From: Sedimentisphaera cyanobacteriorum
GTDB lineage: Bacteria > Planctomycetota > Phycisphaerae > Sedimentisphaerales > Sedimentisphaeraceae
Assembly (NCBI RefSeq): GCF_001997385.1
Contig: NZ_CP019633.1
Span: 2,070,001 to 2,102,000 of the forward strand
Reading direction: 5' to 3'
Length of the DNA: 32,000 nt
A model generated the notes under the pieces. It did not search any database and had not been told where the DNA came from. It was given only the letters and a program-made list of their open reading frames with translations. Positions within the stretch are counted from its first letter, which is position 1; the number at the start of each line of letters is the position of its first letter. Positions 595-18,400 of the stretch are shown here, one piece after another. The position numbers and the translations under genes were made by a program.

Positions 595-726
595 ATGAAA
601 CCAAAATGTGAAAATTCTAATTGTAACTGTGATGGAAAATGCAAAGTCTGTCAATGCCGTGAAACCGTAGCAATTGCCGTGCAGTCTCAAGTCAAAGAGA
701 AAAAGGCCGAAAGGACTGCAAAATGA
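595..726 (+). CDS. 43-aa cysteine-rich micropeptide (MKPKCENSNCNCDGKCKVCQCRETVAIAVQSQVKEKKAERTAK), below the ORF-track length cutoff
   Basis: Hand translation gives ATG at 595 and TGA at 724-726. That stop overlaps the ATG (723-725) of the radical SAM gene as ATGA. Six Cys lie in residues 5-21. A weak GGAA sits about 7 nt upstream of the ATG. Confidence 0.5.
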   Translation: MKPKCENSNCNCDGKCKVCQCRETVAIAVQSQVKEKKAERTAK

Positions 727-2714
727 ATGCAAAAACTGAAACAATCAATTTTTCCAATAGTAATGGACAAAAGCAGTATCAAACGGAGAAACCCTGTGAA
801 TTTCCTTTTGACTCACGTTTTCGCAGCCACATGGATACTTACGGCTGGAGCCGGGTATCACCAACCGGCAATGAAAAAGAATACCGGCTGAATATCATTA
901 AAAACGGCAGCAGTGAAATGAACAGGCGAACAGCTTACATTCATATTCCGTTTTGCGGTACACTTTGTACGTTCTGTAATTTCATGAGAAAGCCCGGCAC
1001 TGCTGCGATGGCCGCTGATTATGCCCAACTGGTTATACAGGAATTACAATGGTATAAGGGTTCTGGTTACATTTCTCAAGGCGGATTTGAGGCACTGTAT
1101 CTGGGGGGCGGGACACCGTCACTATTACCTGCTGAAGCTATGTCGGAACTGCTGAATACTGCTCGCAAAACACTTGGACTTGACGAAACGGCAGAGATCA
1201 CCATTGAGTCAACGGTACATGACCTTACTCAGGAAAAACTTGATGCAATGGTCCAGTCTGGCGTAACACGCATCAGCCTTGGCGTGCAGACATTTAATTC
1301 TGATATGCGGCGGCAGCTGGGAAGGCTCTCTGATAAGGAAACGATTTACAGCACCATCGAAATGGCGAGAAAGGCCGGAATCAAAACCATTTCTTCTGAC
1401 ATTCTTTATCGCCTGCCGGGTCAAAATCTTCAGGAATTCCAGGCTGATCTTGAATGCGCGGTCGAGTTAAACCTGGATGGTGTATCTTTGTATCCTTTGA
1501 TTGCCATGGGCGGAACACCTTTAGAAAAACGGCTAAAAGAGGGCAAAATTCCTCCATTACCAGATATTTCTATCGAGCTGGAACAATGTAAAGCAACAAA
1601 GAAGTTCCTGATCGATGCTGGCTACCAGCAGGACACGTGCACTCATTTTGTCAAGCCAACAGATCGAAATCTCTATGCGAATATCCGTCTGGATGATGGA
1701 GACTGTCTGCCCATCGGCAGCAGTGCCGGCGGCTATCTTGGCCCGCTTGTTCTTATGAACGCCATGGATAAGCAGATGTATCAGATGCAAATCTCTGGAG
1801 GCAAGTCCGGATATATGGCTTCTGTTCTGCTGCCGTCGAAATCCAGAATGCTAAGGTCGGTTACCGGGCAGCTTCAGCGTGGTTTTCTAAATGTTGAAAC
1901 TGTTTGGCAGGATGGTACGTTGGAACCCAAGACTCTTTTGCAAGATAAGATTGATCAGTACCTTGAAAATGGATTGCTTGAAAAAGATGGACAGCAGTAC
2001 CGATTAACCGATGATGGCTGGTGCTGGTGTTATAACATTGCAGCCGATTTTGCGGATATGGGCAAAAATGAAAGTGCCGCAAGCAGTTCTGTAATGTCAT
2101 TTGCGCAAACAAGCGGCAAAAAGCCGCATCCTCATGCATTAAAATACGGCAGCAAAAAACAAGGTCACTCCATGCGGGGCTTTTCATTAAAAGACATTTC
2201 TGTTCTGGGTGTTATGACTGCGCTGGTGGTTGTTGTCCAATTTATAGCTGCGATGGTTTTACATATGACTGGGATTGCTCTGATCCCCGGCCTGATGCAG
2301 TTTGTAATGGCGTTTGCCTCCTGTATCATTTTGTTTGTCGCCATAAAAAAAGTCCCCAAAGCCGGGGCACTTAGCATTATGACAGCGGTATATTCTCTGG
2401 TAACGATGCTGTTGTCCGGCAGTATTCTGATGGGGTTTGGGCTGGTGATCGGCGGTGTTTTAGGCGACCTGACCGCCAAATGGCTTGGCGGGATTGGGAA
2501 AACGGTTCCGTTGATCATTGCTTTAGTTATCTATCGAACTTCTCAGACAACATTCAGCAAGCTGTATGCATTCATCACTGAGATGACACAGGTGCAATTT
2601 GTATGGTATCTGGTCGTGCTTTCAATCATCGCTTCTGCAATAGGTGCGATTGTCGGAGGATTAGCCGGTATAAAACTAACGGCAAAGATCTCAAAAGCGG
2701 GAGTGATGGCATGA
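723..2714 (+). CDS. HemN/ChuW/HemW-like radical SAM enzyme fused to a C-terminal ECF-transporter S-component-like polytopic membrane domain
   Basis: Carries the CxxxCxxC motif YIHIPFCGTLCTFCNF, the HemN-family blocks LYLGGGTPSLL and RISLGVQTFN. After a Ser/Lys/His-rich linker (about aa 445-490) there are about 170 aa of consecutive hydrophobic helices (VLGVMTALVVVVQFIAAMVL... to the end). An ECF T gene follows with an ATGA overlap. Confidence 0.8.
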   Translation: MNAKTETINFSNSNGQKQYQTEKPCEFPFDSRFRSHMDTYGWSRVSPTGNEKEYRLNIIKNGSSEMNRRTAYIHIPFCGTLCTFCNFMRKPGTAAMAADYAQLVIQELQWYKGSGYISQGGFEALYLGGGTPSLLPAEAMSELLNTARKTLGLDETAEITIESTVHDLTQEKLDAMVQSGVTRISLGVQTFNSDMRRQLGRLSDKETIYSTIEMARKAGIKTISSDILYRLPGQNLQEFQADLECAVELNLDGVSLYPLIAMGGTPLEKRLKEGKIPPLPDISIELEQCKATKKFLIDAGYQQDTCTHFVKPTDRNLYANIRLDDGDCLPIGSSAGGYLGPLVLMNAMDKQMYQMQISGGKSGYMASVLLPSKSRMLRSVTGQLQRGFLNVETVWQDGTLEPKTLLQDKIDQYLENGLLEKDGQQYRLTDDGWCWCYNIAADFADMGKNESAASSSVMSFAQTSGKKPHPHALKYGSKKQGHSMRGFSLKDISVLGVMTALVVVVQFIAAMVLHMTGIALIPGLMQFVMAFASCIILFVAIKKVPKAGALSIMTAVYSLVTMLLSGSILMGFGLVIGGVLGDLTAKWLGGIGKTVPLIIALVIYRTSQTTFSKLYAFITEMTQVQFVWYLVVLSIIASAIGAIVGGLAGIKLTAKISKAGVMA

Positions 2715-3469
2715 TACGCTCATTCATCCAGCGACTGGGACAGCGAAATCCGGATTGTATTTTCGAACAGCTTGATCCAAGATGTAAACTGATCATCCTT
2801 TTTGCTGTTACCATAATGATCATTATAGGCAACAGCGTTTTCTCTGCAGGCCTGTTCATAGCTGCCGGTTTTCTCGCCTTTTATTCGAAGCTGATGAAAT
2901 TGTTTCTCTTTACAACTGTATTGGCGGCCATTTTTTGGGTTATTTTTATGGTGATATTCCAATATGCCCTGGACAAGCCGATGGAAGACCCCAAAGCCAT
3001 GTTTGTTGGAATGGTTTTCAGAGGAACTGCACTGGCAACCACCGGATTATGGTTTGCTGTGACCACTAAATTGCGTGATATGACTATCGCACTTGAAGCC
3101 TGGAGAATCCCCAATATTATTATCCTGCCGCTGACAATTGCGGTTCGGTTTATACCGACACTGCTCAATGAATCCCTGGTCATTCACGATTCCATGCGGC
3201 TTCGACGCTTGGCTCATCGAAAGCGTGACCTGATTACCCAGCCTCATTTGATCGGCCAGAGCTATATATCACTGGTGACAATCCGAAGCCTGAAAATGGC
3301 AGATGAACTGGCCGCCGTTGCTGAGACACGGGGGCTTGCTCGCCCGAACCAAAGACAGTTTCTAAAGCCTGCAAAATTCAGGAAAAACGACTATTGCGCC
3401 CTGAGCATCCTGCTGGCTCTGGCGGCTGTTTTAACCGCAGCGTCATTATATGTAAGGGCCGCTGCATAA
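2711..3469 (+). CDS. ecfT: ECF transporter transmembrane (T) component, EcfT/CbiQ family
   Basis: ATG 2711 overlaps the upstream TGA as ATGA. The protein is polytopic and has a CbiQ-like region (IILPLTIAVRFIPTLLNESLVIHDSMRLR). It lies between an S-like domain and, beyond the island, a tandem ABC ATPase. Confidence 0.75.
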   Translation: MIRSFIQRLGQRNPDCIFEQLDPRCKLIILFAVTIMIIIGNSVFSAGLFIAAGFLAFYSKLMKLFLFTTVLAAIFWVIFMVIFQYALDKPMEDPKAMFVGMVFRGTALATTGLWFAVTTKLRDMTIALEAWRIPNIIILPLTIAVRFIPTLLNESLVIHDSMRLRRLAHRKRDLITQPHLIGQSYISLVTIRSLKMADELAAVAETRGLARPNQRQFLKPAKFRKNDYCALSILLALAAVLTAASLYVRAAA

Positions 3470-3576
3470 ATAATTCGCTCTTTTAAAAGTAAATAATTCC
3501 GGCCTTTCGCACAGGCCATAAGGATGGCTGACCCTGTTTGCGGACGGAATCGAAATCAAAAGTAAAAGCCTTTAGA

Positions 3577-3765
3577 AACGTTTTCGGATGCTCCCGGACG
3601 CTTTTCGCGGCTTCCCGAACGGCATTCGGAGTGTCCCGGACGGCGTTCCAGACTCCCCAAACGCTTTCCGGGGCGTTCCAGAATGCTTTTGGAATGTTCC
3701 AAAACGCTTTCGGGGCGTTCCGGACGCAATCCGGGGCGTTTTGCAACGAATCAAAATGCCGTTAA
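3577..3765. repeat. Nine head-to-tail 21-bp repeats, no indels (consensus about AACGCTTTCGGGGCGTTCCGG)
   Basis: Hand-parsed unit starts are 3577, 3598, 3619, 3640, 3661, 3682, 3703, 3724 and 3745. The best units contain the inverted pair AACGC..GCGTT. Unit junctions carry CC(G/C)G(G/A)ACG. Confidence 0.85.
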
Positions 3766-3828
3766 AACCCTTGACGCCGGACAATATCCGGCTATAATAC
3801 GACTTGTTTTGCCCGGCGGCGTAGCCGG
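3719..3828 (+). repeat. Promoter/junction module, copy 1 (last two 21-bp units + promoter + 5' hairpin)
   Basis: Near-identical to 6275-6387: tccggacgcaatccggggcgttt ... aacgaatcaaaatgccgt ... atatccggctataatacgacttgttttgcccggcggcg.agccgg. Confidence 0.85.
3771..3798 (+). promoter_or_regulatory. Sigma70-type promoter TTGACG-16 nt-TATAAT with an imperfect palindrome CCGGAcaatATCCGG in the spacer
   Basis: The hexamers were read directly from the sequence. Downstream is the hairpin GCCCGGC-ggcgta-GCCGGGgGC, then the Zn-ribbon gene at 3932. Confidence 0.55.
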
Positions 3829-3931
3829 GGGCGATTAATAAGCAAATGCAGGTAAAAATGTATCGACCGCCTTTTAATTATCCGAATAAGAGGAGTCTGT
3901 CCAATCATTGTTGGGCCTTACCGGGGGAAAT

Positions 3932-4462
3932 ATGCCTCTGAGGAAATGTAAGGATTGTGGCAACTCCGTTAGTAGCACTGCGAAAATCTGCCCTCACTGC
4001 GGCAGGCCGATGCAAAGCAGGGATATTATTTCATCTCTCGCTAGATTTTTTGTCATCGGCTTCGTCATAATCCCCATCATCATTTCAATCTTCATGTCGG
4101 TATACCACTCCGGCACAAGCACTGACTCCAACGGCAACCACGCAACTTCATCTGCTAGGGTTCCAAAGACTCCAAAGATCGACAAATCTGAGAAGATGCA
4201 GGCCGATCGCCTTAATCTCATTGAGAGACTTCAAAGGGAGGGCATCTTCGGCGACATCATCCCAAGATCTTCCGGCGCGACAATAGTTGTCAAACCAGCG
4301 TTTTACACGCTCGATTTCAAAGATAAGCAGTCGTTTGTTTCTGTTGTGTATGCGTACTACTTCGATGGTTTGACCCCGTATACGCCAATCCTTTTACGAG
4401 ACTCGCGCACCAACAATAACATCGGTTCCTTTACAGTAGAACTCGGTTTAGATATCAAATGA
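3932..4462 (+). CDS. Zinc-ribbon protein with one TM helix and a C-terminal domain of about 85 aa of unknown function
   Basis: ATG 3932 is preceded by GGGGGAAAT. It has the motif CKDCGNSVSSTAKICPHCG and the TM segment FFVIGFVIIPIIISIFMSVY. A low-complexity S/T/K linker follows, then LNLIERLQREGIF...VELGLDIK. Confidence 0.6.
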   Translation: MPLRKCKDCGNSVSSTAKICPHCGRPMQSRDIISSLARFFVIGFVIIPIIISIFMSVYHSGTSTDSNGNHATSSARVPKTPKIDKSEKMQADRLNLIERLQREGIFGDIIPRSSGATIVVKPAFYTLDFKDKQSFVSVVYAYYFDGLTPYTPILLRDSRTNNNIGSFTVELGLDIK

Positions 4463-4520
4463 CGCAGCCCGAAGGTGTTATGAAGAAACCATATAACTAT
4501 TGTTATGCCATCAAGGAAAC

Positions 4521-5372
4521 ATGATGCGGAATACTAAGCTGTTAAAGAAAGCCTTATTGTTAGTCGTTGCTACTGGTTTGATTGGACTTATTATCTGTGC
4601 CGTCTACATCCACAAAGATACGTCGCTTGATAGTCTTTCAGAAATCCCTGCACGAGCAACATCAAGTGGACTGTCCGGACAACTAAAAATCGGCGTTATT
4701 GGGGACAGCTGGGTTGCACGTCAGAAACTGGACTACGCAATTGAATCAACGGTCGCCGAATCTGGATTCGAGACAGTAGTTCTTAGCTCGGGTCATCCAG
4801 GGGCAAAGAGTCGGCAAATATATCGAAACCTCTTCTTAGAAAGTGGAAACAAAAACTCAAGCAATGCTCTGTTCATGGATGATGATTTGGATTACTTGGT
4901 AGTTGTTGCTGGGGTAAACGATTCTGCTGGGCACATTGGAAAGGCATTTTACTCTCATCATATGCTTCTCATCGTTCAGGCAGCATTAGCTCGTGGAATA
5001 AAACCTGTAATTGTCGAAGTTCCAGAATATGGAATAGAAGATACTCCATCAGTTGGTTTGCTGTCGTGGGTGAAACGGTCAATTTACCTTTGGCTGTTTG
5101 ATGGTGGCAAGGTGGATGTGATAAGAGAATATAGAAAGGCACTTCAAGAAGAACTTCAAGCATCAGGTATCGATGACAAAGTTTTTCTTGTTAGATTCTC
5201 GTCAATCGCTAATGACTACAATGCCAGCAAAGATCTCTACGCAAATTCATCACATCTAAATCACGATGGATACTCGAAATTGGGTAAACTGATAGCCGAT
5301 AGCATAACTGAATGGCATAACAAAGCCATGCACTCGGACGGGAATTCCGCTGCGCTTCATTTCCGCCGGTGA
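4521..5372 (+). CDS. N-terminally membrane-anchored SGNH/GDSL-family hydrolase
   Basis: ATGATG at 4521 follows AAGGAA. The TM segment is ALLLVVATGLIGLIICAVYI. SGNH blocks are GVIGDSWV (I), SSGHPGA (II), VVAGVNDS (III) and SSHLNHDGY (V, with Asn where the DxxH Asp is usual). Confidence 0.7.
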   Translation: MMRNTKLLKKALLLVVATGLIGLIICAVYIHKDTSLDSLSEIPARATSSGLSGQLKIGVIGDSWVARQKLDYAIESTVAESGFETVVLSSGHPGAKSRQIYRNLFLESGNKNSSNALFMDDDLDYLVVVAGVNDSAGHIGKAFYSHHMLLIVQAALARGIKPVIVEVPEYGIEDTPSVGLLSWVKRSIYLWLFDGGKVDVIREYRKALQEELQASGIDDKVFLVRFSSIANDYNASKDLYANSSHLNHDGYSKLGKLIADSITEWHNKAMHSDGNSAALHFRR

Positions 5373-5400
5373 TGGCAAGCGTTAGCATTCGGAGGAAAGT

Positions 5401-6015
5401 ATGGCTTGGTTCGTCATAGCGATAATTGTAGCCGCAGTCATTTATGTATGGGTAAAGCGAAAAATAAGCCGGCCAGACCTCACAATCCTGCCAGAACGCT
5501 TCGTGGTTTTTGATCTTGAAACTACCGGCTTAAAGCCAGATACTCACGAAATCATTGAAATCGGAGCAATCCGAGTGAATCGAGACTCTGGTAAGCACGA
5601 TACATTTCAAGCGTTGGTCCGGCCCACTAAGAAGATTCCAAAAAAGATCACTGGAATTACCGGCATTACCCAAGATATGGTAGAGAAAGACGGTGATTTT
5701 TTAGAGACAGCTCTCCCCCAATTCATTGAATTCGTAAGTGATCTACCACTCGTGTCCTTCAATGCTGAATTTGATATGGCTTTTCTGAATGCCGCAATTA
5801 GTAAAACTCAGGTTGGTGCACTTGCCAATAACCGTGTTTCGTGTGCCCTGAAAATGGCTCGTCGCGCATGGCCCGGCAGGAAGAGCTACCGTCTCAGTGA
5901 TCTTGCAAAAGATGGGAGGTTGTCTTCAGATGATACCCATCGCGCCCTTGGTGACTGCAAACGTGCGATGGTCGTTTATACGGCAGCCGCTGCCAAACTG
6001 CGAAGTGCAACATAG
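5401..6015 (+). CDS. N-terminally membrane-anchored DEDDh 3'-5' exonuclease (DnaQ/epsilon-like domain)
   Basis: The TM segment MAWFVIAIIVAAVIYVWV is followed by KRKISR. Exonuclease motifs are ExoI VVFDLETTGL, ExoII SFNAEFDMAFL and ExoIII THRALGDC. GGAGGAAAGT precedes the ATG. Confidence 0.8.
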   Translation: MAWFVIAIIVAAVIYVWVKRKISRPDLTILPERFVVFDLETTGLKPDTHEIIEIGAIRVNRDSGKHDTFQALVRPTKKIPKKITGITGITQDMVEKDGDFLETALPQFIEFVSDLPLVSFNAEFDMAFLNAAISKTQVGALANNRVSCALKMARRAWPGRKSYRLSDLAKDGRLSSDDTHRALGDCKRAMVVYTAAAAKLRSAT

Positions 6016-6055
6016 ACACAAATTAAAGGTGTCCGGTGCTTTTTTCCTACCTAAT

Positions 6056-6280
6056 GCAGGTCAATTTTTATGCCGCCTTTACTGTAAACCGCTATTGCGG
6101 CGTGTTCTCTACGGCAAAGTCCAAAAACCGATAGCCCTCTTTTAATACACGCTGGCCGGCTACGAGCTGGATGGGATAATTAAAAAGCGGCCCATCTGTT
6201 ACCACCGTGTTCAACTGGCCGGAAGAATTGAAAATAAGAAAAGGTGTCTGGGAAGCAGTCCCGATTTATCGGGCTCCGGA
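6056..6280. repeat. Repeat A, copy 1 (about 225 bp)
   Basis: Aligns by eye along its whole length with 11246-11470, with scattered substitutions and a 1-nt indel. It contains the structured segment GCCGC-cttta-CGGT-aa-ACCG-ctatt-GCGGC and the hairpin CCCGAtttaTCGGG. Confidence 0.85.
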
Positions 6281-6387
6281 CGCAATCCGGGGCGTTTGGG
6301 AACGAATCAAAATGCCGTCAAAAAAACCCTTGCAGCGGGATAATATCCGGCTATAATACGACTTGTTTTGCCCGGCGGCGCAGCCGG
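6275..6387 (+). repeat. Promoter/junction module, copy 2
   Basis: Near-identical to 3719-3828 (see that feature). It is directly fused to the end of Repeat A copy 1. Confidence 0.85.
6330..6357 (+). promoter_or_regulatory. Sigma70-type promoter TTGCAG-16 nt-TATAAT (paralogue of 3771-3798)
   Basis: The hexamers were read directly from the sequence. The spacer is CGGGAtaatATCCGG. It lies upstream of the RM-like trio, which starts at about 6414. Confidence 0.5.
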
Positions 6388-6413
6388 ACAGCCGATATGG
6401 GAAATGGCAGATT

Positions 6414-7076
6414 ATGCCGATGGAAGAACAAGTCAAATCAAAGCAGAGGGTAGCCGATCATGGCGAGGTTTTGACCGGTAAGCGGGAGGTCAATGCCATG
6501 CTGGATCTGGTCAAGCAGGAGACCGAGCGAATCGATTCCCGCTTTCTGGAACCGGCCTGCGGGGCGGGCAACTTTCTGGCGGAGATTCTCGAACGGAAGC
6601 TGCGCGTCGTGGAGAAGCGCTATGCCAAGAGCCAACTGGAATACGAGCGCAACGCGGTGCTCGCCGTCTCCAGTATCTACGGCATCGATATTCTTGAAGA
6701 TAACATCGAGCAGTGCCGACAGCGGCTGTTCGGCATCTTCGACCGGAACTACCTGCGGCTCTTCTCAAGCAAGACGAACGACCAATGCCGCGAAACGGTC
6801 CGCTTCATCCTCGAACGCAACATCGTTCACGGCGACGCGCTGACCCTCAAGACGGTCGGCGAGCAACCGGGCTACATCGTCTTTTCCGAATGGTCGCCGG
6901 TCAACGGCAGTTTCCTCAAACGCCGCGACTTCACCTTTCACGGTCTGCTGGAACATGAGCATATACGGGGACTGCCGCTGTTCTCCGACCTGGGCGAGGA
7001 TGTGTTCATCCCCACGCCGGAGAAGGAATACCCGCTGGCGCATTTCCTGGAGGTGGCCGATGCTGACAAGCAATAA
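6414..7076 (+). CDS. Methyltransferase-fold protein with SAM-binding motif I but no recognisable NPPY/DPPY motif IV (degenerate paralogue of the next gene)
   Basis: [17 protein letters not shown]...[12 protein letters not shown] parallels [17 protein letters not shown]...[12 protein letters not shown] in the downstream methyltransferase. IYGIDI and IVHGDALT are present. Where xxGNPPY is expected the sequence reads [11 protein letters not shown]. The start could be 6414 or 6420. Confidence 0.65.
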
Positions 7077-8628
7077 CTACAACCCCGACGTGCTGACCTG
7101 CATCGCCAACCTGTCGAGCGACGAGGTCTTCACGCCGCCGGGGCTGGTCAACCGGATGCTCGACCTGCTGCCGCCGGAACTCTGGAGCGACCCGCAGGCG
7201 ACCTTTCTCGATCCGGGCTGCAAGTCGGGCGTGTTCCTGCGCGAGATCGCCAAGCGGCTCGACGCCGGGCTGGAGCGGCGCATCCCCAACCGGCAGGAGC
7301 GGATGAACCACATCTTCAAGCACCAGCTCTACGGCCTGGCCATCACGGAACTGACGGCGCTGCTCTCGCGCCGCTCGGTCTATTGCTCCAAGACGGCCAA
7401 CGGCAAGTATTCCGTCTGCGAGACCTTCGACGCCCCCGAGGGCAACATCCGCTTCGGGCGCGTGGAGCATACCTGGGTGAACGGCCGCTGCGTCTTCTGC
7501 GGGGCGAACGAGGAAAACTATAAGCGCGGAGAAGAACTCGAAACCCACGCCTACGAGTTCATCCACACCGAAAAACCGGAGGAGATATTCAATATGAAAT
7601 TCGACGTCATCATCGGCAACCCGCCCTACCAGTTGAGCGACGGGGGCGCTGCCGCCAGCGCCATGCCTCTATACCATCGGTTCATCCAGCAAGCGAAGAA
7701 ACTTAACCCTCGTTATTTGACGATGATCGTTCCAAGCCGCTGGTTTTCAGGCGGGAAGGGGCTGGACGAATTTAGGGCAGAGATGCTTCAAGATAAGCGA
7801 ATGCAACACCTTGTCGACTACCCAGTATCAGCGGAATGCTTCCCCGGAGTTTCTATCAAAGGGGGAGTGTGTTACTTCCTCTGGGTAAGGGACTATACAG
7901 GTCCTTGTTCGGTAACTACAATACGCGGAGGGGTGAGCACATGTTCTATCCGACCATTGCTCGAATCGGGCATTTCTGATTTTATTCGATACAACGAGGC
8001 TATTCCGATTCTAAACAAGGTGCGCAGACATTCAGAGGCTACCTTCGACAAAGAAGTTAGCGCAAGAAAGCCTTTTGGACTACCTACTGATTTCCGACAG
8101 TTCAAGAAGCACCGATTCGAAGCGGCAGTCAAGATATACGCCAACAAGCAATTCGGCTACATTGAGCGAGTAAATATCCCCGAGCGGACTGAGTGGATCA
8201 ACAGATGGAAGATCTATCTGACCCGTGCATATGGTGCTGGGGAAGATTTCCCGCACCAAATTCTTAATAAGCCGTTCTTGGGCGAACCTGGTAGTTGTTG
8301 CACTGAGACATACTTGGTGATTGGGCCATATGCTTCGAAGAAAACTGCACAGGCTGTATTGTCGTACATTAGAACTCGCTTCTTTCGCTTTCTTGTTCTC
8401 CTGAAGAAGAATACACAAGACTCGCCTCGTGGAGTATTCACGTTGGTTCCAATACAAGACTTCTCAAGGCATTGGACCGACGAAAAGCTCTACAAGAAGT
8501 ACGGCCTGACCGCAGACGAAATCGCCTTCATTGAATCGATGGTCCGCCCGATGGAGGCGAACGGGGAGGACCTGTCTGCGTGCGACGCACAGGCAGATGC
8601 GTCAGACGGGGAGGCGGACGATGAGTGA
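7060..8628 (+). CDS. Eco57I-like (gamma-class) N6-adenine DNA methyltransferase
   Basis: ATG 7060 follows GGAGGTGG and overlaps the upstream gene by 17 nt. Motif I is [12 protein letters not shown] and motif IV is VIIGNPPYQ. There is a Cys cluster (C..C...CVFC) between them. The C-terminal block [24 protein letters not shown] is typical of this family as I recall it. Confidence 0.85.
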
Positions 8629-11167
8629 CGGCTTTTTCCCGCCGCGCCCGAAATCGCGGCCCACGATCTACGCCTACGAGGACACCAACCCGCAATACGC
8701 CGGGCTGCTCAAGGTGGGCTATACGACTGTGGACGCGCAGAGCCGCGTGGCGCAGCAGTATCCGACGCTGCGGCCCGGCAAGCCGCCCTACCGAATCGTG
8801 CTCGAAGAACCGGCCATGCGCAACGACGGGACCACCTTCACCGATCATCACGTCCACGGCATGTTGCGGATCAACGGCGTGAAGAACGAGGGCGGCGAGT
8901 GGTTCCGCTGCACGGTGGAGCAGGTCAAGGCGGCGATCATCGCCGTGCGCACCGGCCAACTGAACGAGGAGAACCGGTCGCTGGATTTCGCCCTGCGCCC
9001 CGAGCAGGAAGCGGCGGTCGAGAAGACGGCGGCCTACTTCGCCGCCTGGCGCAGGGACAAGGCCAACGGCGACAAGCCGCCGCATTTCCTGTGGAACGCC
9101 AAGATGCGCTTCGGCAAGACCTTCGCCGCCTATCAACTGGCGAAGCGGATGAACTGGCGCAAGGTGCTGGTGCTGACCTTCAAGCCGGCGGTGCAGAGCG
9201 CGTGGGAAGAGGACCTGAAGCAGCACGTCGCTTTCGCGGGTTGGCAGTTCATCAAGCCCGGCGGCCTGACCTATGAGGAGGCAGACAAGGGGAAGCCCTT
9301 CGTCTGCTTCGGCTCGTTTCAGGACTACCTGGGCAAGAACAAGAGCACGGGCGGCATCAAGACCAAGAACGAATGGGTTCACGCGACGAACTGGGATTGC
9401 GTGATCTTCGACGAATACCACTACGGCGCCTGGCGCGAGAACGCCAAGGAACTGTTCGAGGCAGAGGACAAGAAGGAGATGGCCTTCGCCGAGGGCGAGG
9501 GGCTGGAAGACTTTGACGAAGAGATCATGCCGATCACGACGGAGCACTACCTGTATCTGTCGGGCACGCCGTTCCGCGCCATCGCCTCGGGCGAGTTCAT
9601 CGAGGAGCAAATCTTCAACTGGACCTATTCGGACGAGCAGCGCGCCAAGCGGGACTGGGAGGGCGAGAACAACCCCTACGCCTGCCTGCCGCGCATGGTG
9701 CTCATGACCTATCAGCTGCCCGACGCGATCCGGGAAATCGCCATGCAGGGCGAGTTCGACGAGTTCGACCTGAACGTGTTCTTTTCCGCCGAGGGGGTGG
9801 GCGAACACGCGAAGTTCAAGTATGAGGACGAAGTGCAGAAGTGGCTCGACCTGATCCGCGGCGCGTTTCAGGCGGCGACGGTGGACAACCTGAAGCTGGG
9901 GACGAAGAAGCCGCCGATGCCGTATTCCGATGCGCGGCTGCTGAATCTCCTATCGCATACCTTTTGGTTCCTGCCGAGCGTGGCGGCGTGTCATGCCATG
10001 CGCAACCTGCTGGCGAAGAAGCAGAATCGCTTCTATCAGGACTATAAGATCCTCGTGGCGGCGGGGAGCGCCGCCGGAATCGGCGTCGCCGCGCTGCCGC
10101 CGGTGCTGGACGCCATGGAAGACCCGCTGGAATCGAAGACCATCACCTTGTCATGCGGGAAGTTGACGACCGGCGTGACGGTGCGGCCCTGGACGGGCAT
10201 CTTCATGCTGCGCAACGCTTCCACGCCGGAGACCTACTTTCAGGCGGCCTTTCGGGTGCAATCGCCCTGGACGGTGGCGAACCCCGACGGCGACGCGCCG
10301 AACCGCGAGCAGATCATCAAGGAGGAGTGTTACGTCTTCGACTTTGCGCCGGACCGTGCCTTGCGGCAGATCGCCGATTACAGTTGCCGCTTGAATGTGG
10401 ACGAGGCCAACCCCGAGAAGAAGGTCGAGGAGTTCATCAGCTTCCTCCCGGTGCTGGCCTATGACGGCAGTTCGATGAAGCAGATCGACGCGGCGGGGAT
10501 TCTCGACATGGCGATGAGCGGGACGACGGCGACGCTGCTGGCGCGGCGCTGGGAAAGCGCGCTGCTGGTGAATGTGGACAACGACACGCTGAAGCGGTTG
10601 ATGGCGGACGAAGCGGCGATGAAGGCGCTGATGAGCATCGAGGGATTCCGCAACCTCAATCAGGACATCGAGACGATCATCAACAAGTCGGAAGCCGTGA
10701 AGAAGGCGCGTAAGGAAAAGAACGACGAGGACATGACGAAGGAAGAGAAGAAGGAACTGACCGAGGAAGAGAAGGAATTCAAGAGCAAGCGCAAGCAGAT
10801 ACAGGAGAAGCTCATCAAGTTCGCCACGCGCGTTCCGATCTTCATGTATCTGACCGACTATCGGGAGCGCTGCCTGAAGGACGTGATCACCCAACTGGAG
10901 CCGGGCTTGTTCAAGAAGGTGACGGGCCTGAGTGTGAAGGATTTCGAGTTGCTGGTGAGCCTCGGCGTCTTCAACAGCGCCCTGATGAACGACGCCGTCT
11001 ACAAGTTCAAGCGTTACGAAGACGCCAGTCTGAGTTATACCGGCATCAACCGGCACGAGGGAGAAGACATCGGCCTCTACGATACAGTCCTCACTCCCAA
11101 GGATGCACTGAAGGTTTTCGAGAACGTACAGGCAGGTGCCGGATATGAATTTCAAAGAATGGGCTAA
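8621..11167 (+). CDS. T5orf172/GIY-YIG-like N-terminal domain fused to an SF2 (ResIII/SNF2-like) helicase with a Lys/Glu-rich coiled-coil region
   Basis: ATG 8621 overlaps the methyltransferase stop (ATGAGTGA). The N-terminal motifs are TIYAYED...LLKVGYTT...R...GGEWFRC. Helicase motifs are [19 protein letters not shown] and [12 protein letters not shown]. The late block is [13 protein letters not shown]. Confidence 0.85.
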
Positions 11168-11245
11168 CAAGGCGCTGCACCGGACGACGCTGCGCGCCGC
11201 TGATGCTGGGCGTTGGATAGAAAGGGAACATGGATAACCTTCAAG

Positions 11246-11470
11246 GCAGGTCAATTTCTATGCCGCCTTTACGGTAAACCGCTATTGCGGCGCGTTCTTG
11301 ACGGCAAAGTCCAAAAACCAATAGCCATCTTTTAATACACGTTTGCCCGCTGCGAGTTGGATGGGATAATTAAAAAGCGGCCCCCCGTTACCACCGTGTT
11401 CAACTGGCCGGAAGAATTGAAAATAAGAAAAGGTGTCTGGGAAGCAGTCCCGATTTATCGGGCTCCCGGA
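11246..11470. repeat. Repeat A, copy 2
   Basis: See 6056-6280. Here the - strand reading frame is intact (...FFRPVEHGGNGGPLFNYPIQLAAGKRVLKDGYWFLDFAVKNAPQ*). Copy 1 carries a frameshift but conservative substitutions, which suggests a gene 3'-end relic. Confidence 0.85.
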
Positions 11471-11533
11471 CAGCCGTCGAATCCAGCGGTTGGATTTGAA
11501 AATAATTGTGCAGCAGACTTTTGAGTAATTGTA

Positions 11534-13039
11534 ATGCTGAAAATACAAGACTTAACATTTACATATACCCGGCAGGAGAAACCTGCTTTAAGCAATATCA
11601 ATCTGGATATTTCACCGGGCAAGCTGGTGCTTTTGACCGGGCCTTCCGGCAGCGGAAAATCTACGCTTGTGCATTGCATCAACGGCCTGGCTCCGCAGCA
11701 CTACGGAGGGAAGCTTGATGGAGAAATATGGATTGCCGGACGAGAAACCGCCGGAAAAACACTTTGGCAAATCAGTGAGTTGACAGGCACCGTATTTCAA
11801 AACCCCAATACCCAGTTTTTCCAGCTTACGGTCGAAGATGAAATCGCCTTTGGCCTTGAGCATTCAGGTCTTGACCGGCAGGAAATAAAAAAACGAATAG
11901 ATAAAGCCATAGAAGATATTGAGATCGAGTCTCTTAGAAATCGAGATATTTTCACCCTGTCCTCCGGCGAAAAACAAAAGGTGGCCTTGGCATCTATCAT
12001 TGCGATGGATCAGCCACTGCTTCTTCTGGATGAGCCGACGGCAAATCTCGATATCCCCTCAATTCATGAATTGAAAAAACTGCTGGCCAAATTAAAGAAT
12101 CAAGGCAGGACAATTATCGTTTCCGAACATCGACTGTGGTATTTAAGAGGCCTTGCCGATCAGGTGATCGTAATTAAAGACGGACAACTGATTTATGACG
12201 GAAAACCGGAAATACTGAATTCATCTCAATTCCGCAATGAAATTGGTTTACGCATATGGGCTAAGCCTCCGAAAATTACTGATTCCGAACATAATAATCT
12301 CAGACAGCGGACCGTACTGGATGTAAGCCGTCTTTCAGGGGGAGCAGGAAATAAAAAAGACATTCTCAACAACGTGAACTTTTCATTCAACGCAGGCGAA
12401 TGCATTGCCATTATGGGGCATAATGGAGTTGGTAAGACAATGTTTTCTCGCTTACTGACCGGCTTGCAAAAAGAGAGCCATGGAATCATTAAAATCAACG
12501 GCACTGCTTTAAAGCACAAAAGCCGAATCGGACAGATCGGATGTGTTACCCAGCAGGCTGAACAGCAGTTATTCTCTGATACGGTTCTTGGTGAATTACT
12601 TCTTAATCCAAAAGACAATGCGACGGAGGCCGATAAAGCAAAAGATATTTTAAGGCAATATGGTCTGATTGCCTTGAAAGACCGTCACCCGCAAACCCTC
12701 TCCGGCGGCGAAAAACAGCGTTTGGCAATTGCCGCCTCAATTGCAATGAATAATGAAATAATAATCCTCGACGAACCCACCAGCGGCATGGATATGAAGA
12801 GGATGAAAATGCTCGCTCAGGAAGTTAAGAATCTGTGCAGTCAGGGCATACTTGTCATTATCATTACACATGATATCGAATTGGTCTCGCTATGCTGCGA
12901 CAAGATAGCCTGGATGGAAAATGGAACCGTTGCCAAAACGTTAGAACGCGATCAATATAATGAATTATTTATTAAACTATTGAAATTTGACAGAACAGAA
13001 AGGCATAATGATGAAATGCATGGTTGTTTACTCAAGTAA
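11534..13039 (+). CDS. ecfA: ECF-type ABC transporter ATPase, two fused nucleotide-binding domains (EcfA1-EcfA2-like)
   Basis: Domain 1 has GPSGSGKST / LSSGEKQKV / LLLLDEPT. Domain 2 has GHNGVGKT / LSGGEKQRL / IIILDEPTSG. Confidence 0.85.
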   Translation: MLKIQDLTFTYTRQEKPALSNINLDISPGKLVLLTGPSGSGKSTLVHCINGLAPQHYGGKLDGEIWIAGRETAGKTLWQISELTGTVFQNPNTQFFQLTVEDEIAFGLEHSGLDRQEIKKRIDKAIEDIEIESLRNRDIFTLSSGEKQKVALASIIAMDQPLLLLDEPTANLDIPSIHELKKLLAKLKNQGRTIIVSEHRLWYLRGLADQVIVIKDGQLIYDGKPEILNSSQFRNEIGLRIWAKPPKITDSEHNNLRQRTVLDVSRLSGGAGNKKDILNNVNFSFNAGECIAIMGHNGVGKTMFSRLLTGLQKESHGIIKINGTALKHKSRIGQIGCVTQQAEQQLFSDTVLGELLLNPKDNATEADKAKDILRQYGLIALKDRHPQTLSGGEKQRLAIAASIAMNNEIIILDEPTSGMDMKRMKMLAQEVKNLCSQGILVIIITHDIELVSLCCDKIAWMENGTVAKTLERDQYNELFIKLLKFDRTERHNDEMHGCLLK

Positions 13040-13541
13040 AACCGGAAATACAAAAATAATTGCTGAGGCGATCCATAAGGCATTGCCCCAGGACACGGAG
13101 CTTTATCCTGTGGAAAACGCCCCCTCTTCTGATCATTACGATTTCATTGCAGTTGGCGGTTGGGTTGATAAAGGAATGCCCGATGAGGCAATACAAAACT
13201 ATATGCAGAAAATCCATAAAAAAAGTATTGGAATATTTTTGACACTGGGTGCCTATCCTGATTCTCAACATGCTGCGGAATCTTTGCAGAAAGCATGCGA
13301 ATTATTAAATGACAATACAATTCTCGGATCATTTATTTGTCAGGGCAAGGTTGACCCTAAGCTCATAGAGATGATGGCTAAAATGACAAAAGACAAGCCG
13401 GAACACCCCCATGCCATGAATGATGAAAGAAAGGCCAGGTTAGCCGAAGCTGCCAAACACCCCAACGATCAGGACTGCCGAAATGCCGCAGAGACTTTTA
13501 AAAAAATGATCGAAGAATTAAAGGGGCAATCCAATGCGTAA
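13008..13541 (+). CDS. Flavodoxin-family protein
   Basis: Has VVYSSKTGNTK, an FMN phosphate-binding loop, near the N terminus. The start (ATGATG at 13008) follows AAAGG and overlaps the end of the ATPase gene. Confidence 0.7.
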   Translation: MMKCMVVYSSKTGNTKIIAEAIHKALPQDTELYPVENAPSSDHYDFIAVGGWVDKGMPDEAIQNYMQKIHKKSIGIFLTLGAYPDSQHAAESLQKACELLNDNTILGSFICQGKVDPKLIEMMAKMTKDKPEHPHAMNDERKARLAEAAKHPNDQDCRNAAETFKKMIEELKGQSNA

Positions 13542-13956
13542 AATGACCGAAACGGAAATTAACGAACTCGTAAAGAATTCAAATTGGGCAACCATTTGCA
13601 CGGTTACTCCTGATGGGCTTCCTTACGCAATCGAAGCCACCTATTTTATCGATGGCAAATACATTGGCTTTATGATCAACCCGAGAGGTAGGACAATGCA
13701 AAACCTAAAGCATAATCCGAACCTAATCCTAAAAATAACTCAGGCCAGTGGCGATCTTTCCAAATGGGCAGGAGTGAGCCTCTTTGGAACAGGCCAAAAT
13801 ATAACTGATTCTGATGCAATTCGAAAAGGCTGGGAGCTACTCGGAGAGGTTATGAATACTGATTACACCACAGTTACAGAAAAATGCAATAATACGGAAC
13901 AACGTTCGCCTTATCTCAAATGCACGATCTCTCAGATTACAGGGAGGAGTAGCTGA
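13534..13956 (+). CDS. Pyridoxamine-5'-phosphate-oxidase-like (FMN-binding split-barrel) protein
   Basis: Overlaps the flavodoxin stop by 8 nt. The pattern N.WATICTVTPDGLPYAIEATYF..G.. is typical of the PNPOx/Nim/HugZ-like fold family. Assigned by pattern memory only. Confidence 0.55.
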   Translation: MRKMTETEINELVKNSNWATICTVTPDGLPYAIEATYFIDGKYIGFMINPRGRTMQNLKHNPNLILKITQASGDLSKWAGVSLFGTGQNITDSDAIRKGWELLGEVMNTDYTTVTEKCNNTEQRSPYLKCTISQITGRSS

Positions 13957-14591
13957 GTTAACTACCCGCGTTCAGAAAAAACAATAAAGTGACAAAAAAT
14001 TATTTTTGAAGCATAATTGGCATTTTCTGTCCGTTTTTTATAGGACACCACAAGCCATTAAGATTTGCAGACACTACAACTGTACGGGTTCAGTGTGATT
14101 TGGACAAATCCGTTTCACAGTTAAGACACTTTTTATGCCTTTGGCGGGGCTGTCTTATCAGGTTTTTTTAAGGCATGGCAATGCTCTCAATTGCCCAGTT
14201 TGTAAAATGGGATGGCAGGTGTATGACTGCCACCCCAACGAAAATTCGTCGCCTTGAACTGGCTATCCCTAGCAGATTGCAACCAAGGCCTCATGCCACC
14301 TATATAATTTGCTCCTTGATGATGGTGTCGTCCTCAGATTTTGATTTTGGCGGCACCAAATTACAGTTTTTTCACGAAAATGAGGGGGACGGAGAGGTAT
14401 AGTTATAACTTAAGCTTTAACAGGAGGTTAGGTAACATATGTATAAACGGCGGAGCAAAATTGTCCCACCTGGCGGGCGGTTGAAAGTTGTACCCCTGTA
14501 ACCGAAATACCTGTAATAATAGACTGCAAGCAGAGATTCAAAGGACATTTGCAGTAGGTTATTATGGGAGAAAACAGGAGTGTACACAGAT

Positions 14592-16091
14592 ATGGATCAA
14601 TGGATCGAGTTAAGGCGTCAAATTCGTAATGGAGAGGTTTCCCTCCGTCAGTTGGAGCGGGAGACAGGTATTCACCGGCAGACCCTGCGTAAAATCCGGG
14701 ACAACAGTGAGCCGCCGGGCTACCGGCGTACCAAGCCGGCTGGAAAGACCAAGATTGGTCCGTATCTGGGTCGCATCAAGGAGATCATTGACGCTGACAA
14801 GCAGATGCCTAAAAAGCAGCGTCACACAGCCAAGAAGATTTTAGAGACGCTGGAGTCTGAAGGATTTACCGGCAGTTACACGATCGTCAAAGATGCCGTC
14901 CGCCAGATTAAAAAGACTTCCCGGGAAGTGTTCATGCCACTGAGCCAGCGACCGGGCGAGGCGCAGGTGGATTTCGGCCATGCCCTGACCAGCTTCGACG
15001 GCACCCTGAAAAAAATCGTATTCTTTGTCATGACCATGGTTCATTCGGATGCGATGTTCGTAATGGCGTTTCCCCGTGAATGTACCGAAGCTTTTCTGGA
15101 GGCCCATGTACGGGCGTTTAAGTTCTTCGGCTGTGTTCCCAGGCGGATCATTTATGATAATACCCGTGTAGCTATTACAAAGATACTGAAACATCATAAA
15201 CGCAAATATACCAGTGAGTTTAAGCGACTCATCAGTCATTACCTGTTCGAGCCTCACTTCTGTAACGTTCGAAGACCCAACGAGAAGGGTATTGTCGAAG
15301 GCAGTGTCAAGTATTCCAGGCTCAACTTCATGGTCCCCGTGCCGCAGGTTACCGATTACGATGACCTCAATCGGCTCTTGTATAACTGCTGCCAATCCGA
15401 CCTGAAGCGTATCCTCCGCGGCAAACGTTCTCTCAGTAAAGAACAGTTGCTGGCCGAAGACCGTGTCGCAGCCATCGCGTTGCCGGATGACACGTTTGAC
15501 TACCGCAAATCGGCATCGACATTTGCCAGCAGTGAATCACTTGTCCGTTATGACACCAACGATTATTCAGTCCCGGTAAGTTCAGCTCATCATCAGACGA
15601 CGATCAAGGCGTCAGTCAGCTTTATCGAGGTCTATCAACAGGACCGGCTCATCGCCAGGCACCGTCGCTGCTGGGACCGAGAACGGCAGATATTCGATCC
15701 GATGCACTATTTAGAGCTTTTGGAACGCAAGCCGGGTTCCCTGGATCATGCTCGTCCTCTGGAGGATTGGTCGCTGCCGAGATGTTTTAACACGTATCGC
15801 CGATGTCTTGAGGCGAATCGTGAAAACGGCACCAGGGAATATATCCAGATATTGCTCTTGCTGAACAAATATTCAATCCGACAAATATCGAAAGCCATCT
15901 GCAAGGCCCTCAATCATCGGATCTACTGTTATTGTGCGGTGCAGCAGTTCCTGCTGACGGCTGAAGATTATGCCTTTACGACCTTCAGCCTTGCCGGGCG
16001 GGACCATCTTCGTCACATTGTGGTTCGTCAGACCTCAGTTGCCGATTATCGTTCACTGACACAGGGAGGCTGTCATGTCAAAAGAGCGTAA
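14592..16091 (+). CDS. istA: IS21-family transposase IstA
   Basis: N-terminal HTH (LRQLERETGIHRQTLRKI) followed by a DDE/rve core. ATG 14592 lies 11 nt after AGGAG; the ORF-track start at 14580 is a GTG inside the RBS. The gene overlaps istB in the manner typical of IS21. Confidence 0.85.
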   Translation: MDQWIELRRQIRNGEVSLRQLERETGIHRQTLRKIRDNSEPPGYRRTKPAGKTKIGPYLGRIKEIIDADKQMPKKQRHTAKKILETLESEGFTGSYTIVKDAVRQIKKTSREVFMPLSQRPGEAQVDFGHALTSFDGTLKKIVFFVMTMVHSDAMFVMAFPRECTEAFLEAHVRAFKFFGCVPRRIIYDNTRVAITKILKHHKRKYTSEFKRLISHYLFEPHFCNVRRPNEKGIVEGSVKYSRLNFMVPVPQVTDYDDLNRLLYNCCQSDLKRILRGKRSLSKEQLLAEDRVAAIALPDDTFDYRKSASTFASSESLVRYDTNDYSVPVSSAHHQTTIKASVSFIEVYQQDRLIARHRRCWDRERQIFDPMHYLELLERKPGSLDHARPLEDWSLPRCFNTYRRCLEANRENGTREYIQILLLLNKYSIRQISKAICKALNHRIYCYCAVQQFLLTAEDYAFTTFSLAGRDHLRHIVVRQTSVADYRSLTQGGCHVKRA

Positions 16092-16860
16092 ATCGACCGT
16101 GCTGCTGCAACATCATCTCAAGCAGTTGAAACTTCCGACCATGCTTAAAGAATATCCGCTGCTGGCCAAATCCTGCAGCCGGGAAAAATGTGATTACCCG
16201 ACTTACCTGCTGCGGCTGTGCGAAAAAGAGGTTGCCGACCGGCAGCGGCGTGCGATGGACCGGCGAATCAAGGCAGCGAAGTTCCCGTTGCTCAAAACCA
16301 TTGACAGCTTTGACTTTGCCTCACAGAAGTCCGTCAACGAACCGCTCGTCCGGGAGTTATTACGGTGCGAGTTCATTGATCAATATGAAAATGTATTACT
16401 GATCGGCAACAGCGGAACGGGCAAGACCCATCTGGCCACTGCACTGGGGTTCGCTGCCTGTTGTCAGGGCTGCAAAGTCCGATTCTTCGGATGCACGGCA
16501 TTGGTGACACAGTTACTGGAAGCTCGGGAAGATCGGCAGTTGCAGCGAATGCTGACACAGCTCCAAAAACAGGACCTGCTGATCCTGGATGAACTGGGCT
16601 ATGTGCCATTCAGCAAAGCCGGTTCTGAGTTGCTCTTTGAGGTCGTCAGCCGGGCTTACGAACGGCAGAGCCTGATCGTGACGACCAACCTTCCGTTCGA
16701 GAACTGGACTGAAGTGTGCGGCTCCGAGAGGCTCACCGGGGCGATGTTGGATCGGCTCACGCACCGGGTCCATATCATCGAGGCCAACGGTAGTAGTTAT
16801 CGGCTTGATCAGAGCCGTAAACGCCTGGCAAAACAGCAGAAAAGAGCTGCCGAGAATTGA
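16075..16860 (+). CDS. istB: IS21-family helper ATPase IstB
   Basis: Walker A GNSGTGKTHLA and Walker B LLILDELGY. The size and position immediately after istA fit IstB. Confidence 0.9.
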   Translation: MSKERKSTVLLQHHLKQLKLPTMLKEYPLLAKSCSREKCDYPTYLLRLCEKEVADRQRRAMDRRIKAAKFPLLKTIDSFDFASQKSVNEPLVRELLRCEFIDQYENVLLIGNSGTGKTHLATALGFAACCQGCKVRFFGCTALVTQLLEAREDRQLQRMLTQLQKQDLLILDELGYVPFSKAGSELLFEVVSRAYERQSLIVTTNLPFENWTEVCGSERLTGAMLDRLTHRVHIIEANGSSYRLDQSRKRLAKQQKRAAEN

Positions 16861-17077: not shown

Positions 17078-17119
17078 TCGACTTTGAGCTCTTTGGAAAA
17101 TTTATCATGGATGGTAAAG

Positions 17120-17290
17120 TGTTTTGAGATAAAATACTTACAGGGAACGCGGTGAAAATCCGCGACGGTCGCGCCGCTGTGATCGTCCGACCCGGCATCA
17201 GCCGGGAACCCTGACAGCTTTATACCACTGTTCAAGTCGAATGGGAAGGTGTTGTCAGGCAGGATGAGAGTCAGAATACCTGTTACGATG
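17120..17290 (+). promoter_or_regulatory. Cobalamin (B12) riboswitch
   Basis: Conserved core elements were read in order: CAGGGAAcgcGGTGAAAATCCgcgaCGGTCGCGCCGCTGTGA, then ACCACTG...GGGAAGG, then the B12-box-like GAGTCAGAATACCTG. The boundaries are approximate. Confidence 0.8.
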
Positions 17291-17377
17291 AATTTAGTAA
17301 AGTTCTCGCGTAAAGAACAGCATTAAGCCGGATTATTGTAAATTAGTACATATAATATGGACAAAAGAAGGTTAAAA

Positions 17378-18382: not shown

Positions 18383-18400
18383 GTTTTTGACGTATTTCTC

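Follow-up and report, generated by a model that had tools for sequence, protein, structure and literature searches.

Degradation of heme by radical S-adenosylmethionine (SAM) enzymes has been described for ChuW/ChuY of Escherichia coli O157:H7, HutW of Vibrio cholerae, and HmuW/HmuF of Fusobacterium nucleatum. Upon opening of the porphyrin ring, ChuW, HutW, and HmuW release the iron (PMC10114669), in the form of Fe2+ (PMC10404700), and HmuF brings heme to HmuW, the anaerobilin synthase, and reduces the product of that enzyme (PMC10404700), though these accounts describe no acceptor for the freed iron (PMC10114669, PMC10404700). On the import side, LhaSTA of Staphylococcus lugdunensis is a heme-specific energy-coupling factor (ECF) transporter with S, T, and A components that makes heme available as an iron source (PMC7299338). 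The locus compared with these systems here is a predicted heme operon at the start of a 32,000-nucleotide stretch of Sedimentisphaera cyanobacteriorum DNA (contig NZ_CP019633.1, positions 2,070,001 to 2,102,000 of the forward strand), hereafter the window. Two features of its heme module appear to be undescribed: the fusion of a ChuW/HutW/HmuW-like enzyme to an ECF S component, and a lineage-specific, cysteine-rich micropeptide of 43 residues whose reading frame, at 595–726, ends on the start codon of the fusion gene. No publication was found in which a ChuW-type enzyme and an S component are joined in one protein, and full-text searches returned no literature linking anaerobilin with anammox or ChuW with an ECF transporter.

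With the ChuW/HutW/HmuW systems the locus shares the ChuW/HutW best match and HemN fold of its enzyme, as well as an FldH/HmuF-like flavodoxin and heme-binding uptake proteins in the same operon; by analogy, the enzyme here would also be expected to open the heme ring and set iron free (PMC10114669, PMC10404700). It differs from them in the fused S component, in a TIGR04107 score below the cutoff, and in the cysteine-rich micropeptide encoded ahead of the enzyme. The likeness to LhaSTA, drawn from description and not from sequence, lies in a heme-dedicated ECF-type importer with S, T, and A components, whereas LhaS stands alone as an S component, without a fused degrading enzyme or a micropeptide. 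The elements at the centre of the comparison are as follows.

595–726, + strand: unannotated gene of the cysteine-rich micropeptide, an open reading frame (ORF) read from the sequence, with orthologues in all ten loci of the clade with 67–100% identical partner enzymes
622–657, + strand: conserved metal-binding-like core of the micropeptide, codons 10–21 (C-N-C-D-G-K-C-K-V-C-Q-C), a CX3CX2C motif with C-x on either flank
712–715, + strand: AGGA Shine–Dalgarno (SD) sequence of the radical SAM gene, lying inside the final codons of the micropeptide, 7 nt 5′ of the ATG at 723
723–2063, + strand: ChuW/HutW/HmuW-like class C radical SAM (HemN-fold) domain of the 663-residue fusion protein (TIGR04107, PF04055)
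2184–2714, + strand: C-terminal, six-helix ECF-transporter S-component domain of the fusion protein, MptD/Trep_Strep family (PF09605, helices in the AlphaFold2 (AF2) model)

The small ORF runs from ATG to TGA on the forward strand and encodes MKPKCENSNCNCDGKCKVCQCRETVAIAVQSQVKEKKAERTAK, a product of 43 amino acids, as an initial annotation made from the sequence had stated. That annotation also gave the cysteine spacing correctly, the residues standing at positions 5, 10, 12, 16, 19, and 21 (CX4CXCX3CX2CXC), and likewise the ATGA overlap at 723–726, in which the TGA of the micropeptide (724–726) overlaps the ATG (723–725) of the fusion gene (723–2714). Its description of a basic tail fits the peptide as a whole, which is hydrophilic with a net charge of +5 and an isoelectric point (pI) of 9.1, but not quite the tail itself, since residues 22–43 carry six Lys or Arg against four Glu and are only mildly basic on their own. 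All copies of the peptide are hydrophilic and basic (pI 8.6–10.2; net charge +3 to +12), His and aromatic residues are nearly absent from them, and no copy contains a transmembrane or signal segment. When the 32 kb were translated in six frames, only three Cys-initial 17-residue segments with at least six Cys were counted among 34,063 stop-free segments, so that cysteines packed this densely seldom arise by chance, and the motif C.C.{2,4}C..C.C occurs once in the whole window.

DNA was recovered for 16 loci of the family, ten of which, the window included, encode partner enzymes of 67–100% identity, and in all ten the small ORF lies directly 5′ of the fusion gene. The gene that precedes it is a chaN gene in the window, L002, L042, L044, and L045, and an N_methyl gene in L001, L039, L040, L041, and L043. 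At the orthologous site the motif C.C.{2,4}C..C.C is exact in nine of the ten loci, L002 having Tyr in place of the motif's third Cys. Across the peptide alignment of 11 copies, residues M1, C10, C12, V18, C19, and C21 are invariant, and C16 is kept in ten copies and is Tyr in L002. The consensus core reads C-x-C-x3-C-[KR]-V-C-x-C, whereas the first Cys and the tail vary, the latter always remaining rich in Lys, Arg, and Glu. Of the six-cysteine pattern first described, five positions are thus conserved or nearly so, but Cys5 is replaced by Thr or Tyr in two copies.

The codon test, performed on the ten orthologues, locates the constraint in the same part of the peptide. Over codons 1–22 the proportion of synonymous differences (pS) in frame +0 is 0.69 and that of nonsynonymous differences (pN) 0.22, giving a pN/pS of 0.32 without any stop, and over the core codons 10–21 the values are 0.81, 0.14, and 0.18, again without stops; synonymous exchanges between TGT and TGC are frequent at the Cys codons. 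The other five frames have pN/pS values of 0.46–1.31 and 1–35 stops, frame +0 alone being free of stops in all ten sequences. Tail codons 22–42, with a pN/pS of 0.76, are under little constraint at the protein level. The length of 43 residues is found in seven of the ten loci as assembled and in eight when L002 is corrected by one nucleotide, and seven loci show the ATGA or GTGA overlap, with two more (L045 and L002) regaining ATGA by a one-nucleotide change in a run of A. Taken together, the sequence comparisons make it very probable that the ORF at 595–726 is a functional protein-coding gene.

Several copies deviate in detail. In L045 (3869–4004) an early stop occurs at a run of nine A in the Lys-rich tail, and a one-nucleotide fix restores a 44-residue, ATGA-terminated ORF; in L002 (5874–6017) the frame is shifted at a run of six A in the Lys-rich tail, and the same kind of fix gives a 43-residue, ATGA-terminated ORF. 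Two extra nucleotides in L044 (3871–4044) let the peptide frame continue for 14 codons inside the enzyme gene. These deviations may reflect assembly errors, real decay, or slippage. L043 contains, at 743–862, a second and truncated micropeptide copy (MKDKYDNSNCKCSGRCRVCKCSKDAK...) that diverges past residue 26, lies after a duplicated N_methyl gene, 3 kb 5′ of the intact copy, and has no radical SAM gene after it.

The distribution of the micropeptide is narrow. Conservation upstream of orthologous enzymes, on which the initial annotation had let its proposal depend, holds for the ORF and its Cys core at the ten nearest loci but not beyond them. At five basal fusion loci, which encode four distinct proteins of about 57% identity, the gap upstream of the enzyme gene is −1 to 29 nt and therefore leaves no room for a small ORF, and the 50%-identical relative in L046 is unfused and has neither the peptide nor adjoining ECF genes. 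Upstream of 24 unfused ChuW/HemN-like loci no convincing small Cys-rich ORF was found, and a six-frame motif scan of 46 loci returned, besides the expected sites, only the truncated duplicate of L043 and, in L005/L008, a run of Cys that is unrelated. Among 124 retrieved proteins no other ChuW-like enzyme has a Cys-rich domain fused to it, and a metagenome scan with the family alignment yielded two fusion loci that were already in the set and no new ones. The enzyme-domain tree, built by neighbour joining, unites the peptide-positive loci in one clade, which implies a single gain of the small ORF. One of the relatives is labelled Ca. Kuenenia and another Pirellulales, labels that point to the Planctomycetota and to a lineage that is probably related to anammox bacteria.

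Protein collections hardly contain the peptide. A profile of the 11 copies found only the L002 orthologue among 5.8 billion proteins, and phmmer against 1.84 billion representatives found this orthologue and one spurious repeat protein. A word-indexed search of the 5.8-billion-protein set with the window peptide returned nothing, itself included; the copy in the window has thus never been called as a gene, which bears out its description as unannotated. That only one of ten orthologous copies (L002) is present in protein collections means that micro-ORFs of this kind are systematically missed by gene calling.

The partner enzyme was initially called HemN-like, and this is right as far as the fold is concerned, an AF2 model of the fusion protein (17 homologues, mean predicted local distance difference test score (pLDDT) 78) matching HemN (1OLT) with a template-modelling score (TM) of 0.77 and an E value of 7e-25. 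It is not a generic HemN, however: by its family matches it belongs with the ChuW/HutW/HmuW-like enzymes of anaerobic heme degradation, and it is joined to an ECF S component. Its top NCBIfam match is TIGR04107 (ChuW/HutW) with 292.8 bits, ahead of HemW with 174.7 bits; because the cutoff of TIGR04107 is 400, the enzyme is referred to as ChuW-like and not as a certified equivalog. The radical SAM cysteines C78, C82, and C85 (CX3CX2C) are invariant. The sequence also matches NocN (9P2U). Radical_SAM, HemN_C, and Trep_Strep are the only Pfam matches, and none to PqqD or a RiPP (peptide made by ribosomes and modified post-translationally) recognition element (RRE) was obtained from Pfam; among the NCBIfam matches listed there is one SPASM-family model, with a marginal 22.7 bits (cutoff 400) and restricted to the radical SAM core. 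In the C-terminal part PF09605 scores 41.1 bits, over its gathering score of 28.7, and TIGR02185 38.7 bits, under its cutoff of 76.45; in the AF2 model, residues 451–486 form a disordered linker and residues 489–658 six long helices. The fusion suggests that heme import is directly coupled to degradation. The family is small, about 20 proteins of 50–100% identity among 5.8 billion, beyond which unfused ChuW-like proteins follow at 32% identity or less. Four enzyme cysteines, Cys245, Cys289, Cys434, and Cys534, are enriched in the peptide-positive clade, being present in 8–10 of the ten enzymes there and in 0–1 of four basal ones. These residues could possibly be contacts or ligand partners of the peptide, or else a phylogenetic signal, and since the sequences are few and related, the pattern carries little weight as support for an accessory role of the peptide.

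The remaining genes of the operon, all on the forward strand, are consistent with heme import and degradation.

3–464, + strand: 3′ part of a gene of a ChaN-type heme-binding protein, which runs off the start of the window (PF04187 Cofac_haem_bdg, E 3.8e-17, profile positions 137–213 of 213)
2711–3469, + strand: ECF T component of the CbiQ family, start/stop-coupled to the fusion gene (PF02361, E 1.1e-16; TIGR02454)
11534–13039, + strand: duplicated ECF ATPase EcfAA′ (TIGR04520/TIGR04521, 343/340 bits, above the cutoffs)
12987–13541, + strand: FldH/HmuF-like heme-associated flavodoxin (PF12641, E 5.6e-53; PDB 8G64, E 4.8e-16; NCBIfam BilS-like)
13534–13956, + strand: PNPOx-like split-barrel protein, with whose gene the operon ends (PF01243, E 1.5e-13), in the same position in L003, L042, and L044

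Full-length chaN genes occupy the equivalent position in L042, L044, L045, and L007. The structure 8G64 is that of the heme-bound FldH of Fusobacterium nucleatum, a paralogue of HmuF (PMC10404700). Because of this gene content, comprising ChaN, the ChuW-like enzyme, the S/EcfT/EcfAA′ transporter, and the FldH-like flavodoxin, the operon is predicted to be a unit for heme import and anaerobic heme degradation. In relatives the uninterrupted order is PEP-CTERM, a gene without assigned function, N_methyl, ChaN (in some loci), fusion, EcfT, EcfAA′, flavodoxin, and PNPOx.

In this setting the micropeptide may be a metallothionein-like accessory subunit that handles iron or Fe-S centres, the reading favoured here, though tentatively and with somewhat less than even confidence. 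The release of iron by ChuW, HutW, and HmuW would leave an obvious job for an iron acceptor. The CX3CX2C motif within the core has the cysteine spacing by which radical SAM enzymes bind their [4Fe-4S] cluster, and the composition, with Lys or Arg between CxC and CxxC pairs, resembles that of metallothioneins without the support of homology. According to the proposed mechanism, the peptide would be a genuine, translated, cytoplasmic protein of 43 residues, gained once in one planctomycete lineage, whose 12-residue N-terminal core would wrap a metal-thiolate centre in the fashion of a metallothionein, the centre being Fe(II)/Fe(III) or else a small Fe-S cluster. The variable basic C-terminal half would serve as a docking arm, and the ATGA overlap would tie synthesis of the peptide to that of the fusion protein. 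The S-component membrane domain together with EcfT and EcfAA′ would import heme, the cytoplasmic ChuW/HmuW-like domain would open the porphyrin ring and free the iron, and the peptide, at the cytoplasmic face, would take up iron from the ring-opened tetrapyrrole. Less likely, the peptide would instead furnish the radical SAM domain with an Fe-S centre or relay one to it. A more specific version, in which the peptide is a metallo-subunit acting in trans, with an iron-thiolate or [4Fe-4S] loop of about 12 residues docked on the ChuW-like domain and either extracting Fe(II) or serving as an auxiliary cluster, is unlikely. As a conserved, thiolate-rich mini-protein made together with the enzyme, the peptide offers a concrete candidate, open to testing, for the acceptor of the iron; if the metallo-subunit reading is true, it would fill in the step that anaerobic heme catabolism lacks, iron acceptance or electron relay, and hardly any natural Fe-S or iron-carrier protein would be smaller than the peptide. 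The fusion, for its part, suggests import-coupled destruction of heme in a lineage with ties to the anammox bacteria, which are very rich in heme.

A number of observations weigh against an iron-handling subunit. No match for the peptide was obtained in Pfam with four orthologous copies at E ≤ 10, in NCBIfam at E ≤ 1, or by profile search of the PDB at E ≤ 10, and the AF2 model, based on an alignment of two sequences, has a pLDDT of 55 and a tentative C-terminal helix, is uninformative, and was not used. Cys16 is Tyr in L002, Cys5 is not conserved, and the SD sequence of the small ORF is weak in the window (GGAA, −3.3 kcal/mol), those of the relatives having −4.2 to −8.7 kcal/mol in eight of nine cases and −3.1 in L043. 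Basal orthologues of the enzyme as well as the characterised ChuW/HutW/HmuW systems operate without such a peptide, which must therefore be dispensable for the core chemistry. Finally, structural zinc is the commonest ligand of small Cys clusters and is indistinguishable from iron in silico.

The nearest peptide families likewise resemble the micropeptide only in part. Metallothioneins such as SmtA/BmtA (PF02069) and MymT are similarly small and hydrophilic, with CxC and CxxC pairs, Lys and Arg, and almost no His or aromatic residues. Unlike these, the micropeptide has only five or six Cys and a Cys-free tail of 22 residues, its gene is coupled within an enzyme/transporter operon and does not stand at a metal-stress locus, and no hidden Markov model match was obtained at E ≤ 10, the prokaryotic metallothionein family PF02069 remaining without a hit in Pfam (four peptides, E ≤ 10) and in the PDB search (E ≤ 10). 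The SCIFF peptides, of about 45 residues with six Cys and adjoining a radical SAM gene, offer a similar outward likeness, which the initial annotation had already set aside, and rightly so: the Cys cluster of the micropeptide is N-terminal and not C-terminal, the partner has no SPASM domain with its clusters, the peptide is confined to one narrow clade, and the NCBIfam scan at E ≤ 1, in a library presumed to hold the SCIFF model, gave no match to the family. HemP/HmuP (PF10636) was not matched by the peptide in Pfam either, and a separate hemP gene is present in L007.

The sequence around the small ORF bears on its translation and on the possibility of a regulatory role. At the site of the AGGA sequence a purine-rich SD of the enzyme gene is conserved in nine of ten loci (−4.5 to −5.9 kcal/mol), and the conserved C-terminal end of the peptide is in part due to this overlap with its final codons. 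A spacer of 130 nt (465–594) between chaN and the small ORF is found in the window only; in the eight of nine relatives with a called upstream gene, the small ORF starts 9–34 nt downstream of that gene or overlaps it. The spacer contains one structured element.

529–555, + strand: strong hairpin ACACCAGCGAG-TTTAGG-CTTGCTGGTG, present in both the minimum-free-energy and centroid folds, occurring once in the window

A promoter-like site lies at 451–479, ahead of the small ORF, and a mini-ORF of four codons (584–598, ATGGAAATAAAATGA) has a stop that overlaps the ATG of the peptide. The fold of 465–760 is not unusual (z = −1.4). An RNA element in place of the peptide was considered and rejected, given this fold and a permissive Rfam scan of 400–800 that gave chance-level matches only, and no Fur box was found within three mismatches around 400–800.

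Explanations of the micropeptide other than iron handling differ in how well they accommodate these findings. It could be a small basic protein of the zinc-knuckle type with structural zinc, stabilising the fusion protein or the ECF complex or regulating the operon by binding nucleic acid. Clusters of four or five Cys in small proteins mostly hold structural zinc, and the strong positive charge of every copy (net +3 to +12), together with a tail that varies yet stays rich in Lys, Arg, and Glu, would suit such a protein. This explanation is unlikely nonetheless, as no zinc-ribbon or zinc-knuckle family is matched in Pfam at E ≤ 10, the packing of CxCx3CxxCxC into 12 residues is tighter than in typical ribbons and knuckles, and the strict position and translational coupling point to a stoichiometric partner and not to a regulator. 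Comparably unlikely is a thiol peptide directed at tetrapyrroles, either a heme chaperone with Cys-thiolate ligation or a trap that captures anaerobilin through thioether adducts. The operon context is entirely one of heme handling, anaerobilin is cytotoxic, and heme is passed between partners in the HmuW/HmuF system (PMC10404700), but the peptide lacks a Cys-Pro heme-regulatory motif, CXXCH, and hydrophobic residues that could form a pocket, the operon already has an FldH-like flavodoxin for heme trafficking, and five clustered cysteines, invariant or nearly so, resemble a metal site more than a single axial ligand. If the product were functionless, the ORF might instead act as a regulatory upstream ORF, a leader rich in Cys codons that tunes the radical SAM gene by termination–reinitiation or by sensing Cys-tRNA. 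The ATGA overlap, the location of the enzyme gene's SD within the small ORF, and, in the window, the promoter-like site at 451–479 with the 130-nt spacer ahead of the ORF all fit this possibility; it is doubtful, however, and a little more so than the two before it, because the core residues conserved include Val18 and Lys/Arg17 besides the cysteines, the ORF lies in the middle of the operon in most relatives, 9–34 nt past the preceding gene, and the operon has no connection to cysteine supply. The hallmarks of a leader-peptide attenuator are likewise missing, the ORF not standing at the transcript 5′ end in eight relatives, the fold of 465–760 containing no structure like a terminator or antiterminator, and no Rfam family being matched.

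The proposal that the peptide is a new radical SAM substrate, which the initial annotation had placed beside that of a metal, haem, or Fe-S partner, proved the weaker of its two options. Small Cys-rich ORFs beside radical SAM genes are often substrates, and class C radical SAM methyltransferases such as NosN and TbtI reportedly act in RiPP pathways, so that the class C domain of the fusion might methylate or cross-link the peptide as a RiPP-like precursor. A role as RiPP substrate is very unlikely, however, because the partner is ChuW-like, with the heme-degrading ChuW/HutW as its best family, and, joined as it is to the S component of an importer, is encoded within a heme uptake operon. Neither an RRE/PqqD domain nor a peptidase or exporter was found in about 15 loci, orthologous enzymes of about 57% identity occur without the peptide, and the conserved N-terminus and variable C-terminus are the reverse of the usual leader/core layout; the metal-partner option fits these observations better, as far as can be inferred. 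That the ORF arose by chance or is decaying, its conservation being due to recent ancestry or overlapping nucleotide signals, is the least probable of these explanations, and highly improbable. Its confinement to one clade, the pN/pS of 0.76 in the tail, the frameshifts in two loci and read-through in one, and its near-total neglect by gene callers would agree with this view. Against it, silent sites in the core are saturated (pS about 0.8 against a pN of 0.14) yet the Cys core is kept, the frame is the sole one open in all ten loci, and seven of ten loci (eight with the corrected L002) retain the start codon, the SD, and the 43-residue length down to a partner identity of 67%.

The downstream part of the heme operon is interrupted in the window. 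In relatives EcfA follows 2–20 nt 3′ of EcfT, whereas here an island of about 8 kb (3470–11533) splits the operon exactly between EcfT and EcfAA′. The features identified within it are the following.

3719–3828 and 6275–6387: direct repeats, 92–94% identical, nested with the pair at 6053–6277 and 11243–11466, 91–93% identical
3908–4462: Zn-ribbon protein
4500–5372: GDSL hydrolase
5401–6015: RNase T-like exonuclease
6363–8628: MmeI/Eco57I-type methylase genes
8531–11167: T5orf172 and ResIII helicase protein

The island may uncouple the genes of the ATPase, the flavodoxin, and the PNPOx-like protein from the upstream half of the operon. In the peptide-negative locus L003, the operon carries at 8386–8520 a 44-residue ORF that resembles the N-terminus of a flavodoxin (MKVPAVYSNKTGNIEKQ...), and in the region 10358–11153 an ACT-domain gene together with, a short way downstream, the gene of a SAM synthetase, through which the supply of SAM may be co-encoded with the SAM-consuming enzyme.

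Further along the window, an Rfam scan at gathering thresholds identified a cobalamin riboswitch only (17098–17301, 71.8 bits). The operon that it leads (17741–28641) encodes two proteins without assigned function, an N_methyl protein (pseudopilin-like, 20151–20936), CobT, CobS, a BtuF-like protein, an ATP-binding cassette (ABC) ATPase, a FecCD permease, CobU, and CobQ. Both tetrapyrrole-uptake operons of the window thus begin with secreted proteins without assigned function and an N_methyl protein, a hint of an envelope uptake module specific to planctomycetes. The operons are flanked by genes of mobile elements: a Mu-transposase-C/IstB pair (IS21-like) lies at 14580–16860, between the heme operon and the riboswitch, and an rve-integrase gene (28661–29737) follows CobQ.

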